The notes under the pieces: model-generated
Databases searched by the model: none
What the model was told of the DNA's origin: nothing
Seen by the model: the letters and a program-made list of their open reading frames with translations, nothing else
Position numbers and translations under genes: made by a program
Source of the DNA: Candidatus Heimdallarchaeota archaeon
Lineage (GTDB): Archaea > Asgardarchaeota > Heimdallarchaeia > JABLTI01
DNA length: 43,026 nt
Direction of reading: 5' to 3'
NCBI GenBank assembly: GCA_018238155.1
Contig: JABCTZ010000015.1
Location: 1 to 43,026 of the forward strand
Part shown: one piece after another, positions 1,848 through 17,384 of the stretch
Position numbering within the stretch: position 1 is the stretch's first letter
Layout of the letters: every line of letters begins with the position of its first letter

Positions 1848-1885
1848 AACACATCGTTCTTATCACTGAAGCATAATTATTCTAA

Positions 1886-1933
1886 AAACGGACTTCTAGC
1901 CCTTCAAGAAGAAGCGAGGACCGTAGATTCTAC
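1886..1933 (+). repeat. Cassette-boundary repeat R3
   Basis: aacggacttctagcccttcaagaagaagcgaggaccgtagattctac; core 1894-1915. Confidence 0.9.
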
Positions 1934-1955
1934 AAAATCATTTTTTTTCTTTTGT

Positions 1956-1988
1956 TAACCCCTACAGTCTCAGGTGAGACTAGGATTA
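1956..1988. repeat. Palindromic element AGTCTCA-GG-TGAGACT in the right flank of R3; second copy at about 3760-3792
   Basis: agtctcaggtgagact at 1966-1981; tatctcaggtgagact at 3770-3785 flanked by taacc/ggtta. Confidence 0.7.
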
Positions 1989-2110
1989 GTGAAATAATTA
2001 ATTCAATTATATTATTTTGCATTTGAAGAAGCTATTATTTTACCAACTTTAAAATGGAGAAAAAATTAGATTTCTCATCAATATATCTGAGTCAACATTT
2101 AAGTCTAAAT

Positions 2111-2470
2111 TTATGGCAACTCAACAATTCGCATATGAGTTTCGTGAACAACAGTAAATTTTCCTATAGGATTGAATTCCTTATCTTCAAGTATTTCTCT
2201 AATAAATGCTTTTACTTTTGCTGGTGATGTGGGTGGGAATCTAAGCAAAACTATTCCTTTCGACTCGAGCCCTTCTTTAAACACCAACTGACCAAAATCT
2301 TTGTCAAAAGTGATTATCACTAAATCCTTTTCAAAAGCATATTTCATTACTTTCTTATCAAGCATCCCGCACATACTAAGAGGTATACTTTCTATTGCAT
2401 ATCCTTCTACTCTTAGCCCCTTTATTATTAGTAGAGGAATATTCTCGTCAGCTAGATATCCGATCTTCAT
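2111..2470 (-). CDS. DUF5615 PIN-like toxin (VapC45 type)
   Basis: YLADENIP...D..V...A......IITFDKDFG...GIVLLR signature; overlaps the upstream DUF433 gene. Confidence 0.9.
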   Translation of the reverse strand: MKIGYLADENIPLLIIKGLRVEGYAIESIPLSMCGMLDKKVMKYAFEKDLVIITFDKDFGQLVFKEGLESKGIVLLRFPPTSPAKVKAFIREILEDKEFNPIGKFTVVHETHMRIVELP

Positions 2471-2712
2471 TCTTCAACCTTCACTGGTCGTAATTGTTCT
2501 TCTTTAATGATAATTCTTGCATAATCAATTGCTGCGAGAATGTCTGCTTTCTTTAGTTGCTGGTAGTTCTCTAAAATAGCTTCATAGGTCCAATCATTTG
2601 CTAAAAGTTCTAATATGAATTCCACAGCAATCCTTGTTCCTTTTATAATTGCTTTTCCTGTTAGAATCTCGGAATTGACCTCTATTCTTTCATTTACTAA
2701 AGGAGTTGTCAT
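2467..2712 (-). CDS. DUF433 antitoxin
   Basis: RIEVNSEILTGKAIIKGTRIAVEFILELLA...ILENY..L...DILAA signature. Confidence 0.92.
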   Translation of the reverse strand: MTTPLVNERIEVNSEILTGKAIIKGTRIAVEFILELLANDWTYEAILENYQQLKKADILAAIDYARIIIKEEQLRPVKVEE

Positions 2713-2854
2713 TCATACATCACTAGTTATATTATCACTATTTTATTATATTAACTCTTTCACAAATCATTTTTCTTGCCTGATAGGTCATTTACCAAAA
2801 GAGTAAGGTTCTATTAAAAAGAGATGTTGTATCAATGTGTTCTTATCACTTGTT

Positions 2855-13776: not shown

Positions 13777-13782
13777 GATTGT

Positions 13783-15444
13783 ATGATTGAATGTAAAGAT
13801 TTGATTAAAATCTATTTTGACGAAAAAAAAGAAATTCGTACTCCAGCTCTAAGAGGATGTGACCTTTCTGTCGAAGCAGGAGAGATATTTTCCATTGTTG
13901 GACCGAGTGGTTCTGGGAAAACGACACTCATTAACATCCTTGCTGGCTTAGATAGTTGTTCTAGTGGTGAAGTACTTGTTGGGGAATATCAATTAGCAAA
14001 AATGAGTACAAAAGAATTAAACAATTATAGACAGAAAATGATTGGGATTGTTGACCAATTTCCTGAAAGGACGCTATTTCTAGATGGAACGGTTAAGGAT
14101 AATTTGAAGTTTGTTTCGAAACTTAATCAAACACATGTCATAAATTCTCATAATAGAAACCGAGAGATACTTAAGAAATTGGGTATTGATCACCTTGATC
14201 ATCGAATTCTAAGAAGCCTTTCAGGTGGAGAAATGGTTCGAACTGCAATAGCTTGTGCACTTGCTAAAGAAACACCAATATTATTATGCGATGAACCCAC
14301 AGGTCAGCTAGATAGTTTTAATACTCACCAAGTAAAAGATTTATTGAAACAAGTCACTAGAAACTTTGAAGTTACGGTACTTGTTGTTACTCACGATCCA
14401 AGATTTCAAGAAGGTGTGGATAAAACTTGTGAAATTCTTGATGGTCGAGTTTCTTCTATTATATCTCTCAGTGAGCAATTAACTTATGGTGATAAAAGTA
14501 AATTCCCACTAAAATTCAAGACACAAATGGATACCTCAAACAGTATCCGATTACCTGATTTCATTATTAGCACTCTCAAATTAACTAATGCTGCTGAATT
14601 AAATTATACTAAAAATGGCAAAGTACAATTGGTGCATCCAGATGGAATAGAACCTAAAAAAGTGACTTTAGAAAAAATAGTCTTTAAAAGAAAGGAACTT
14701 GTTTTGGATATGTTGCCTGCTGATTATTTTGAACATTCAAAGAATATTATTTCATTCAATGATGTGTCTAAGGATTATCATAGTAATGGTAATATCGTTC
14801 AAGCTCTTTCTTCAATTAATTTAGGATTACATAAAGGAGAATTAGTTTTCATTCTTGGACCTAGCGGTTCTGGCAAAACTACTTTGATTAAATTAATAAG
14901 TGGATTAGAGCAGATAACTTCTGGTCAAATAGAAATACTTGAACAACCATTTAGCAGTTTTTCTGATGCTCAAAAATCAGAATTCAGAAAACAAAATATT
15001 GGTCTTGTAACACAACAAGGGAATCTTCATCCACTCCTAACTATTGCTGAGAGTTTTTATCTAAAAGAAATTTTTTCTAGAAAGGATATTAAAAATTTGG
15101 AAGAAAAGAATATTGGTAAAATACTAGAACAATTCAATATTACCCACAGAAAAAAATCTTATCCACTTGAAGTTTCTGGGGGAGAATTACAACGAGCTTC
15201 TTTAGCAATTGCAATTAATGATTTTCCAAAAATTATTATTCTCGACGAACCAACAGCAAATTTGGATACTAAACTTGCAAAAGAAGTTATGAATAAAATA
15301 TATACTATTCATAATACAACTGATATCACTTTTGTTATTGCTACACATGATATAAGTTTAATAAGAGATGGCTACAGAGCTTTAGTTCTTGAAAATGGAA
15401 AAATCGAGCAAGATGGTATAGTAATTACACCAAATAATGATTAG
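13783..15444 (+). CDS. ABC ATP-binding protein with two LolD/MacB-type ATPase domains
   Basis: GPSGSGKTT twice, LSGGE/VSGGE, DEPTG/DEPTA and VTHD/ATHD. Confidence 0.95.
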   Translation: MIECKDLIKIYFDEKKEIRTPALRGCDLSVEAGEIFSIVGPSGSGKTTLINILAGLDSCSSGEVLVGEYQLAKMSTKELNNYRQKMIGIVDQFPERTLFLDGTVKDNLKFVSKLNQTHVINSHNRNREILKKLGIDHLDHRILRSLSGGEMVRTAIACALAKETPILLCDEPTGQLDSFNTHQVKDLLKQVTRNFEVTVLVVTHDPRFQEGVDKTCEILDGRVSSIISLSEQLTYGDKSKFPLKFKTQMDTSNSIRLPDFIISTLKLTNAAELNYTKNGKVQLVHPDGIEPKKVTLEKIVFKRKELVLDMLPADYFEHSKNIISFNDVSKDYHSNGNIVQALSSINLGLHKGELVFILGPSGSGKTTLIKLISGLEQITSGQIEILEQPFSSFSDAQKSEFRKQNIGLVTQQGNLHPLLTIAESFYLKEIFSRKDIKNLEEKNIGKILEQFNITHRKKSYPLEVSGGELQRASLAIAINDFPKIIILDEPTANLDTKLAKEVMNKIYTIHNTTDITFVIATHDISLIRDGYRALVLENGKIEQDGIVITPNND

Positions 15445-15550
15445 TATAAAGAGAATTGAATTTTTAAATTATGAATTGGAAAAAAAGTTAGAAAAAAGAA
15501 GAGTTTCATTTGAAACCATTCTTTGTTTCTTTTGTAATTCTAATTTCTTT

Positions 15551-16874
15551 TTAGTAATATTGATCTCCAAAGTAAGTACTATAACTACTAAAACTACTAC
15601 CAATATATTGTTGTGGTGTTTGATAATATCTCCTACCAAAAATCCATGTCTTGAAAGGTTCTAAAGAATTGACGTAAGCTTCAGCAAAGTCGTAAAATTC
15701 ATCCAATGATGTTCGACCATTACAGTTTGAGTCTGCATCATTTGCGTTAAGATCTGGATCTAGGGCTTTAATGATTCCATAATCCCAATAGTTATGTCCA
15801 GCAACACCATTTGACATTTCATACCCCCAACTAAATTCAATTGAAGAACAAGCAGTTAAAATAGCTCGATTAGTTTCGTCAACCATACCGCCACCTATAA
15901 AATAGCCAGAATAACATGATCCAATCATTACAAGCATTTTGTTGCATGTAATACCATCAAGAGCAGTATCAAGCTCTAAACGAGTCATTTCATCAGATCC
16001 ACACTCAAGTGTACAATATGTACTATGACCAATACCATGACTCATCCAAAAGACCATAACATCATCATTTGTACCAACGAGACCATCTATATCATCACAC
16101 GCATCTTCAACATTAGTCTGACTTGCTGCAGCATCACGAGGGATGGTAGTACCATCGAATGAAGTTAGCTCTGTAATCAAAAAGATTCGACTTGCCTGGT
16201 AACTATAATGGTCAAGTAAAATATTATTCAATAAATAGGCATCTTGGTTGAATCGCTCATCACTAGATCCTGCTACGATTAGAGCACAAGCACTAGTATA
16301 GAGATTAAAATTATTGGACCCTCCACTCGAAACTGTTTTCGTTTCAGTTATAAAGTTGGTTTTTTCTACTTTTAAGTATCCACTTGTGAATGAGTTTGCA
16401 CCTATATTATATAAACCAGTTGAACTAGTAGTATCAGAGCTAATTAATACGTGGTTGTTATTGTAAAGTTTAACTGATGCACTAACAATTCCTCGATTAT
16501 TTCTGTCTTTAATATAACCATAGAAATTAATTTGAAGATAGAAGTTATTAGTACCCCCACTTGTAACACTTTCAGTCTGTGTTTTGAATCCAGTTTTCGA
16601 AACTGATAAAGAGTAAGGAGAATTTCCTGAAAGCGTAACATAAAAACTATAGGCACCTTGGCTATTTGTAGTTACTACTTTTAGAACATTATATAAACTA
16701 TCTGAAAGGAGTACAGTTGCACCAGCAAGCTTGTTATTATTTGTATCATAAACAGTCCCATTAAAGGTTGTTGCTCCTTCAACATTCAACATTCACACTC
16801 ATTGTTATTGTACCAAGTATTGGAATAATTACAAGTAACAAATAGAATTTCCTTATACAATTTTCTCTATTCAT
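15551..16874 (-). pseudogene. Secreted clan CD (C13/caspase-like) cysteine peptidase with two carboxypeptidase-regulatory-like domains; signal peptide frameshifted
   Basis: MSHG and GSCYSG His/Cys dyad; two G.V.D.NN..L.GA.V.L domains. The signal peptide from ATG 16874 is put out of frame by a 7-bp tandem duplication at 16778-16791. The intact part is ORF 15551-16792. Confidence 0.8.
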
Positions 16875-17167
16875 TTCATTTTTCCTCTTTCATCTATTAT
16901 AAATGAATTCATCCTAGTATCCTCTCTATGTTTAATAGTTTACTAATTATACTTAATTGTGATTTTCAACTTATTTAACTTAAATATACAAAATGACCGT
17001 TGTCTAATGAATTAACAAAAGTTTTCTATGAGAACAAACTTCTGAAAAATTTTCAATTTAAACTTTGATTTCATTAACATACAATTTATCGATAGATGTC
17101 ATTTTTGTAAGGTTTACTACAAATGATTTTGTTAGAAATGAATATACTTTTTACTCAATTAGTGCTA

Positions 17168-17240
17168 TACTTACTACCTAAGTGTGTCATTACCGAAATG
17201 AACTTCTAGCCCTTAAAGAAGAAGCGAGGGGCGTAGAATC
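17168..17240 (+). repeat. Boundary repeat R13 (long form)
   Basis: tacttactacctaagtgtgtcattaccgaaatgaacttctagcccttaaagaagaagcgaggggcgtagaatc; core 17204-17225. Confidence 0.92.
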
Positions 17241-17384
17241 ATGCATTCAATCATTTACTTGTTTTCTTTTTTTAATCATAAACGATTAAGTAATTATGCA
17301 GAATTTATAATGAAATAACCCTACAACTTTTAGTGTCGTATTTTACATTTTATTTGTAGATTCAATTAATTTGTTTGAGTCTAT

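Follow-up and report, generated by a model that had tools for sequence, protein, structure and literature searches.

Why does one short repeat, R1 to R15, recur along a contig of a Heimdall archaeon with flanks that look reassorted from copy to copy? The window analyzed here is the entire 43-kb contig (43,026 nt; C33, accession JABCTZ010000015.1) of a Candidatus Heimdallarchaeota metagenome-assembled genome (MAG; G000, assembly GCA_018238155.1; 4.08 Mb, 46 contigs, 90.7% complete, 5.9% contamination). A preliminary description of the window had proposed that the left and right flanks of the copies, here called arms, assort independently through site-specific recombination within the repeated core. 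We find that the repeat is not a free-standing element but a duplicated 3' end of the 23S ribosomal RNA (rRNA) gene together with the 3' strand of the pre-23S processing stem. Copies of it close a series of small gene modules that have been reshuffled among contigs and genomes, with junctions inside the repeated block. We describe in turn what the repeat is, where its arrays are anchored, where the modules are joined and how they may be exchanged.

An nhmmer profile of the repeat, run over the G000 contigs, returned 40 copies (E from 1e-23 to 6e-4), of which 14 lie on C33, 11 on C28, 6 on C31 and the remainder on small contigs, with one each on C10 and C19; no contig has copies in opposite orientations. 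Searching the genome for the 18-nt core with up to 2 mismatches allowed gave 26 matches, and a reversed control gave 0, an excess well above chance. Positions in the repeat are counted from an anchor (0), for which we take the final A of the native CTTCTAGA, with negative numbers to the left and positive numbers to the right. The comparison set comprised ten genomes of the same genus (including G005, G006, G007, G009 and G010), three genomes of other genera, and metagenome contigs from other studies (including X3). Each of the sequencing runs contained at most 0.11 of the sampled words.

The repeat copies the 23S rRNA tail and a processing-stem strand

A single 23S rRNA gene was detected in G000, and the genuine repeat copy lies at its end on contig C35. 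There, the Rfam model LSU_rRNA_archaea (RF02540) matches positions 5952-5360 (model 2591-2987 of 2987, 313.8 bits), stopping 17 nt to the left of the repeat anchor. The body of the gene lies at the end of C1 (model 16-2717), which joins C35 by a 127-nt overlap at 100% identity. The left arm acttaccacctaagcgtgtcattac is the 23S tail, and the core CCGAAATGGACTTCTAGACCTTAAAGAAGAAGCGAGG... belongs to the trailer. In a typical copy, 25-45 nt from the 3' end of the 23S gene precede the 3' strand of the stem, and long copies include up to about 215 nt of native trailer. The longest left arm is that of R11 (8929..9112; all copies in the window are on the plus strand), a 136-nt pseudo-copy of the 23S 3' end that is followed by the core and a type C right arm; it is 81% identical to C35:5481-5320 (E=4.6e-36), and window 8929-9088 aligns with C35 at 81% over 165 nt. 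Rfam found nothing over the window at the gathering threshold, and an E-value scan of 8700-9300 was also empty, so that the pseudo-tail of R11 is recognized only by BLAST to the genuine 23S end.

The 23S 5' leader (C1:133990-134048) pairs with repeat positions -28..+34 over about 45 base pairs, at -57.6 kcal/mol compared with -35.4 +/- 3.6 kcal/mol for shuffled trailers. In the three genomes of other genera, queried with their own tails, 23S tail plus trailer had one other match only, to the inverted leader across the gene; no extra tail copies were present. Because of this leader pairing and the inverted leader seen in the other genera, we identify the core as the 3' strand of the pre-23S processing stem. 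G000, G009, G005, G007 and G010 have identical native sites up to AAGAAGAAG (...CTTAAAGAAGAAG); beyond CTTAAAGAAGAAG, G000 and G009 continue with CGAGGGCC..., and G005, G007 and G010 with TGTG.... The G010 leader bears a change that matches its trailer. As a separate observation, the native right arm holds ACTTGAAGAAGT, a perfect 12-nt complement of the leader ACTTCTTCAAGT (C35 about 5150-5140, minus strand, roughly +195; also at window 2024-2035). It complements the leader better than the core does, so a second possible pairing partner of the leader lies about 200 nt downstream.

Two other identities of the repeat were considered and rejected. The core matches none of the 43 tRNAs found by aragorn, and it does not encode a conserved peptide, as some copies have stops in all frames and R2 lies after a stop codon.

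The arms assort independently

The flank motifs named in the preliminary description are all in place. R3 and R4 have the left motif gttcttatcact in common (1856-1867 and 2839-2850), and R11, R12 and R13 the left motif acttacYacctaagYgtgtc. On the right, R3 and R5 have in common an arm of about 55-70 nt ending in tctcaggtgagactagg (repeat family D12, 84%), R4 and R13 the motif agaatcatRcattcaatcatttacttg... from 2906 and 17235 (repeat family D11; 90% over 51 nt), and R5 and R9 the motif tatcagttatttttt. What does not hold is that the left flanks are unrelated motifs: all of them derive from one sequence, the 23S rRNA 3' end, and have decayed to varying degrees. The description had itself named, as a finding that would speak against its reading, that the motifs might be eroded pieces of one ancestral element, and this is what we see for the left motifs and for the right motifs of R3, R5 and R9, which derive from the 23S tail and the native trailer. 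These right motifs belong to the type A arm, present in about 14 copies, which is the sequence that follows the 23S gene at its native site. The type B arm goes with a module encoding a DUF433 protein on the plus strand; that it might be the native trailer of another species was considered and rejected in favor of this tie.

The independent assortment of the arms itself was borne out. Across all 40 copies, left-arm (-49..-14) and right-arm (+15..+50) distances were uncorrelated (Mantel r=0.06, p=0.21), whereas segments of the right arm correlated among themselves (r=0.29-0.37, p=0.0005). A self-copying repeat resembling a terminator or a miniature inverted-repeat transposable element (MITE), with mosaic flanks produced by differential erosion alone, would account for flank motifs that are eroded versions of one long sequence. 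Such an origin is very improbable and already contradicted by several observations. The left end of the supposed element is the 23S gene, and the repeat search of the window reported no terminal inverted repeats. The copies occur only in co-oriented arrays, whole intervening modules are exchanged, and the arms are uncorrelated.

Arrays are anchored behind the 23S gene in close relatives

In G005, one contig (C98) carries the native 23S end and, in the 27 kb behind it, at least 14 further copies in a common orientation. Likewise, on G009 contig C95 the arrays follow the native copy on one contig, and their first modules differ from those of G000 although the 23S tails are 98-99% identical. The tail query matched 9 of the 10 same-genus genomes, several of which carry 6-11 partial tail copies; in the genomes of other genera, this query matched only conserved segments of the 23S body, and not the tail with its trailer. 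It is thus very probable that the accessory arrays are anchored at the 23S tail.

One array stands elsewhere. On G009 contig C71 (6480-9000), a two-copy mini-array with genes for 78-aa and 471-aa proteins lies between genes that are adjacent in G000 (C20:142651-142798). Its right junction reads ...CAAGAAGAAGTGAGTGG|AAGAACC, and its left junction has no detectable repeat; it represents a secondary site away from the 23S gene.

Modules move as units, with junctions inside the block

The clearest exchanges involve two neighboring modules of the window. The minus-strand DUF433 module between R3 and R4 (2111..2712), a DUF433 + DUF5615 gene pair, recurs left of C28:38628 (88% nucleotide identity, with homology ending at +18) and in G006 (contig C217). 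The plus-strand DUF433 module between R4 and R5 (3034..3651), with DUF433 and an apparently broken DUF5615 partner, recurs at C28:20263-21076 (94% nucleotide identity, starting at about +1), at C28:42145, on G009 contig C102 and in G006, where the order of the two DUF433 modules is reversed. R4 (2837..2930), which lies between them, has its left arm from the minus-strand module and its type B right arm from the plus-strand module. R3 (1855..1948) combines a decayed 23S-tail left arm with a native-type (A) right arm that extends to about 2035, and R5 (3655..3744) consists of the block followed by a native-type right arm to about 3900. Two G000 copies of the minus-strand DUF433 module have the same decayed tail up to -20, resembling the G006-type 23S variant. 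The broken partner in the plus-strand module is a 58-aa DUF5615 remnant (window 3273-3651) that is 98% identical to part of an intact 128-aa gene at C28:20645-21031.

Further modules give the same picture. The module at 6407..7107 (minus strand), between R7 (6332..6422) and R8, encodes a HEPN and nucleotidyltransferase (MNT) pair and is found with other neighbors in C28 and on G009 contig C102; the upstream repeat copies in C33 and G009 are alike from +5/+6 on. In a sediment metagenome from another study (X3), the GNAT module lies between the module for a 267-aa protein and VapBC, and ParDE follows the minus-strand DUF433 module. Both of these joints fall inside the block (sides of 103-255 nt); joints with sides below 30 nt were set aside, among them seeming 'goes back' joints that may represent circles. 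Within G000, contigs C9 (16 kb) and C28 (44 kb) form alternative paths between the same ends; to the right, they match without a difference from position +6 in the last repeat, and left of -14 they are unrelated.

All resolvable junctions lie between about +5 and +18, in or beside CTTMAAGAAGAAG / (AAG)3. Left arms go with the upstream module, and right arms with the downstream module or the native trailer; a module is therefore composed of a right arm, its genes and a 23S-tail copy, with nearly all of the conserved block 5' of the junction. The mini-array on G009 contig C71, with the block at one end only, is consistent with this structure. A segment-identity matrix of the type A copies was also tried for placing breakpoints and was too noisy.

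These results support the part of the earlier proposal that places a crossover inside the core, as the arms belong to different units and whole modules relocate. Its site-specific part is not established: there is no recombinase in or beside the arrays examined and no convincing dyad, and the copies have varied ends and mosaic blocks, features that suit homology-driven exchange at least as well.

Several ends of array-region contigs in G000 form bubbles in the assembly graph (C9/C28, C5/C35, C2/C33 and C25/C33), with C9 and C28 having both ends in common. Three-gene modules of C5 and C35 are syntenic, with protein identities of 45%, 33% and 93%. The C9/C28 and C5/C35 duplications indicate that the MAG either mixes strains or has paralogous array segments.

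How the modules may be exchanged

The copies end at many positions: on the left at -31..-47 and also at -63, -69 and -136, and on the right at +9..+15, +23..+32, +64..+75 and +150..+170, the shortest right ends being at about the end of the conserved stem. Identity to the native copy is 89% at 0..+14 and falls to 54% at -44..-29 and 58% at +24..+34. Block variants are mosaic among copies. A four-gamete test in the block found all four combinations in 664 of 741 site pairs, a weak hint, as recurrent mutation is possible at such divergence.

Homology-driven recombination within the block would explain the native-like flanks on both arms, the varied copy ends, the shortest right ends at +9..+15 and the mosaic blocks. 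The varied ends would by themselves also produce the tent-shaped identity profile, and crossovers between diverged repeats would land in the longest identical run in any case. We consider this route the most likely one, although it falls somewhat short of an even chance. Modules (toxin-antitoxin (TA) pairs, defense systems and others) are stacked in one direction behind the 23S gene, each closed by a tail copy, and are gained, lost and reordered as units by recombination in the repeated block, mostly in or beside CTTMAAGAAGAAG. Under homology-driven exchange, direct repeats could release a module as a circle or a segment, the circular intermediate being something we infer, and the released module could re-enter at any copy, even the native one of a different species, through a Campbell-type crossover. 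Only insertions that damage neither the 23S end nor the conserved part of the stem (up to +14) would then survive selection; if a copy stopped before the end of the conserved stem, its recombination into a native site would harm 23S maturation.

Several observations weigh against this account. The resolvable junctions cluster in about 10 nt, at +5..+15, and the minimal core is kept while the rest of a copy erodes, a pattern that a dedicated site would also give. Diverged copies have perfect identity over just 14-20 nt or so, a short stretch for classical homologous recombination, and circular intermediates were not observed. C33 connects to the 23S gene only by way of a tangled assembly graph and the single-contig case of G005. 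The locus of the mini-array on G009 contig C71 has no block in G000. Finally, the MAG may mix strains, in view of its 5.9% contamination, and duplicated modules inside it may be strain variants instead of paralogues.

A rival that speaks directly to the junctions is an integron- or IMEX-like system (IMEX, integrative mobile element exploiting Xer), in which a recombinase encoded elsewhere would cross over precisely in or beside (AAG)3 and the native 23S trailer would be the primary attachment site. The enzyme would be a XerA-like protein encoded at C8:49852-50907 or another, so far unknown one. The tight clustering of junctions in several independent comparisons, the survival of the minimal core CCTTMAAGAAGAAG in the most decayed copies, the strict co-orientation of all copies and the attC-like presence of the block at only one end of the C71 mini-array are what such an enzyme would leave behind, and the distribution of the XerA-like gene parallels that of the arrays. 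That parallel is confounded by kinship; no recombinase adjoins the arrays in G000, G005, G006 or G009; the core has no convincing dyad (5-bp arms, 9-10 nt spacer); and a simple site does not require varied ends, mosaic blocks or native-like arms. We regard a trans-acting enzyme of this kind as possible, with perhaps one chance in three in its favor. The fuller version, a dedicated capture system analogous to the integron in which the stem strand is the attachment site and a trans enzyme, possibly the genus-specific XerA-like recombinase, cuts and joins at (AAG)3 to build a defense and TA array of more than 100 kb, seems to us slightly less likely still.

The recombinase inventory of G000 offers few candidates. 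Two tyrosine recombinases (PF00589 matches at C8 and at 71 kb on C19) were found, both far from the arrays, and no serine recombinase or Y1 transposase; the one Cas1 gene, on contig C15, is also away from the arrays. The C19 protein, encoded at C19:71085-72659, has 524 aa and a patchy distribution. The C8 protein best matches the XerA family NF040815 (121 bits, below the cut-off of 220), and its gene is 67-89% conserved in 7 of the 10 same-genus genomes, with only 24-28% matches elsewhere. In this recombinase, the only XerA-like one of G000, a Cys-rich insert separates the N-terminal part from the catalytic part. Beside the arrays of G000, G005, G006 and G009 no recombinase was present, nor in the part of the array open reading frames (ORFs) that was scanned. 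By eye, the symmetry of the core consists only of CTTCT/AGAAG, 5-bp arms with a 9-10 nt spacer; a dif-like site has two inverted Xer-binding arms around a 6-8 bp spacer.

Integrons and their integrase-less arrays (clusters of attC sites lacking integron-integrases, CALINs) have been reported in Asgard archaea (Ghaly et al. 2022, PMC9668308), and a co-oriented repeat array with TA cassettes and no integrase nearby would fit that description (PMC9668308). Single-strand folds of four copies, on both strands, were no better than those of shuffled sequences (z -0.22 to -1.37), and no RYYYAAC/GTTRRRY (R''/R') end pair was seen by eye on the aligned copies, in which the conserved part is central and not terminal. 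The integron integrase model TIGR02249 (IntI) had no match in the genome at its 90.7% completeness, the XerA-like protein scoring 38 bits against a cut-off of 265, and the orientation of the genes is mixed. We therefore consider a true integron cassette array scarcely credible here.

The varied extent of the duplicated segments on both sides, and arms that are native-like on both sides, would also follow from a target-duplicating insertion, in which a long target at the 23S trailer is copied to both sides of the insert, through a staggered break or by replication, and later exchange shuffles the modules. Left arms carry 23S-tail signatures of other species and move with modules across genomes, as with the G006-type CTTCCCACTT in R3 and R4, and modules would thus arrive already equipped with the block. 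This makes a target-duplicating origin improbable.

Copies and modules along the window

Genes between the copies point in both directions, and module sizes range from 0.65 to 12 kb. At the left end of the window, R1 (103..190) is a copy of the 23S tail and stem strand (nhmmer E=1e-14) that is 97% identical to the end of contig C2 up to +17. The module between R1 and R2 (271..1074, plus strand) encodes the 267-aa protein, without a Pfam match, which in metagenome X3 is followed by the GNAT module and not by VapBC. R2 (1064..1135), a short copy, has beyond AAGAAGAAG a right side that resembles none of the other right-arm types, and it precedes the module for a VapB antitoxin and a PIN-domain toxin (VapC) at 1203..1847 on the plus strand (PF02697, PF01850).

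To the right of R5, R6 (5044..5132) is an nhmmer copy, and the module between it and R7 encodes a RING-finger membrane protein on the minus strand (5185..6222). R8 (7205..7294), at the end of the HEPN module, has a strongly decayed left arm with the core kept. The GNAT acetyltransferase module between R8 and R9 (7438..8025, plus strand) is 91% identical in nucleotides to sequence left of C31:24033 and stands elsewhere in metagenome X3. R9 (8050..8125) is a further nhmmer copy. R10 (8207..8242) is a weak one, missed by nhmmer (repeat family D5, 64%), whose right side starts with TGTG. The interval between these two (8126-8206) has no ORF and consists of the start of a native-type right arm and then A/T-rich sequence. 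A TumE-like toxin and its 77-aa partner (8246..8854, minus strand) occupy the module between R10 and R11. Between R11 and R12 lies a ParD-like and ParE pair (9190..9659, plus strand), the one that follows the minus-strand DUF433 module in metagenome X3. The right side of R12 (9679..9770) starts with TGCG, like native sites of other species.

The large module between R12 and R13 (9763..16792) contains a broken copy of an array-associated gene of an unknown family, an FtsX/ABC transporter pair and a clan CD peptidase. The broken gene belongs to a family of proteins of about 320 aa without a Pfam match that recurs beside the repeats, at window 9763-10287 (minus strand) and at C28:23832-25636, 33655-34614 and 42581-43600; the window member is split into two ORFs that are 85% and 68% identical to C28:24653-25636. 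A second, related family (e.g., C31:3412-4344 and window 41298-42284) has the common motifs IPLLI..., EAFxLFANI and NG. Neither family (e.g., C28:24653-25636 and C31:3412-4344) has a Pfam match or a recognizable catalytic motif.

R13 (17165..17259) has a near-native 23S tail and, as its right arm, the initial 51 nt of type B. Within the interval that leads to R14 (22437..22521; decayed, E=4e-12), leucine-rich-repeat proteins with 72-nt internal repeats are encoded at 19182-20000 and 20864-22315 (minus strand), and there is a duplication with an offset of 984 nt (86% nucleotide identity). Two subtilase (Peptidase_S8) genes at 24124-25293 and 27369-28316 (minus strand), with 82% protein identity, sit in another duplication with an offset of about 3.24 kb and segments of 84-91% nucleotide identity. 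R15 (28621..28683; E=6e-4) is the most decayed copy and keeps the core only. Further right, 29418-32003 (minus strand) encodes an 861-aa protein of DUF285 repeats (Pfam 1001 bits, 9 stretches), with tandem 75-nt units at 29871-31295; the region of this gene has 43% GC, compared with about 31% around it. Modules on sister contigs carry a type II methylase with HerA, two prokaryotic Argonaute (pAgo) genes, a Cas4-like nuclease, RmuC, and a WD40 protein with a HerA/FtsK-like ATPase.

Relation to known systems and implications

Among the closest parallels are the islands at tRNA and tmRNA 3' ends and the 'additive' flexible islands, in which the repeats also copy the 3' end of a conserved RNA gene, addition is one-directional and content is hypervariable between close relatives. 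As in those islands, the repeats here equal the 3' end of the adjoining host gene: the end of the LSU model lies inside the repeat, and G005 and G009 show the arrangement on single contigs. In contrast, the anchor is the 23S tail with a stem strand, the modules are tiny (0.65-12 kb), there are about 40 copies, and no module is seen with an integrase; island-borne integrases were absent among the array ORFs scanned, a part of the total. Integrons and CALINs resemble these arrays in having small TA-rich cassettes, each closed by a repeat almost wholly 5' of the junction, and an integrase absent from the array. They differ in their attC hairpins, R''/R' boxes and IntI; here, genes have mixed orientations and the site was copied from the end of a host gene.

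SCCmec-type arrays (staphylococcal cassette chromosome mec) at the 3' end of rlmH (orfX) in staphylococci consist of tandem elements behind one gene end with direct repeats, and some elements lack a recombinase of their own, which is supplied in trans; SCC repeats are about 15-20 bp, and the serine recombinases (Ccr) are known. The arrays described here are alike in placing tandem elements behind one conserved gene end and differ in that no serine recombinase was found in G000. Xer-dependent IMEX and pdif modules are also integrase-less, often encode TA pairs and would use a host recombinase, and one XerA-like gene is present here. However, no dif-like 11-6-11 dyad was recognized in the core, and pdif sites alternate in orientation while the copies here all point one way. 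In Helicobacter, restriction-modification genes reportedly entered varied loci as single insertions by 'insertion with long target duplication' (a report attributed to Nobusato and colleagues, 2000). Both cases have defense genes between long direct target repeats and neither a transposase nor an integrase, whereas the arrays here are iterated at one RNA gene and their modules are found across species. Our literature search found no account of 23S-tail arrays, of 23S-end integration sites or of Heimdall cassette arrays.

Practically, these findings explain the assembly breaks in such regions and mean that 23S-tail fragments in Asgard MAGs are not contamination. The gene store that they reveal has no integron parts, with no integrase in sight. 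In these archaea, close relatives of eukaryotes, a large and fast-changing store of TA and defense genes can dock at the 3' end of an rRNA gene together with a strand needed for rRNA maturation.

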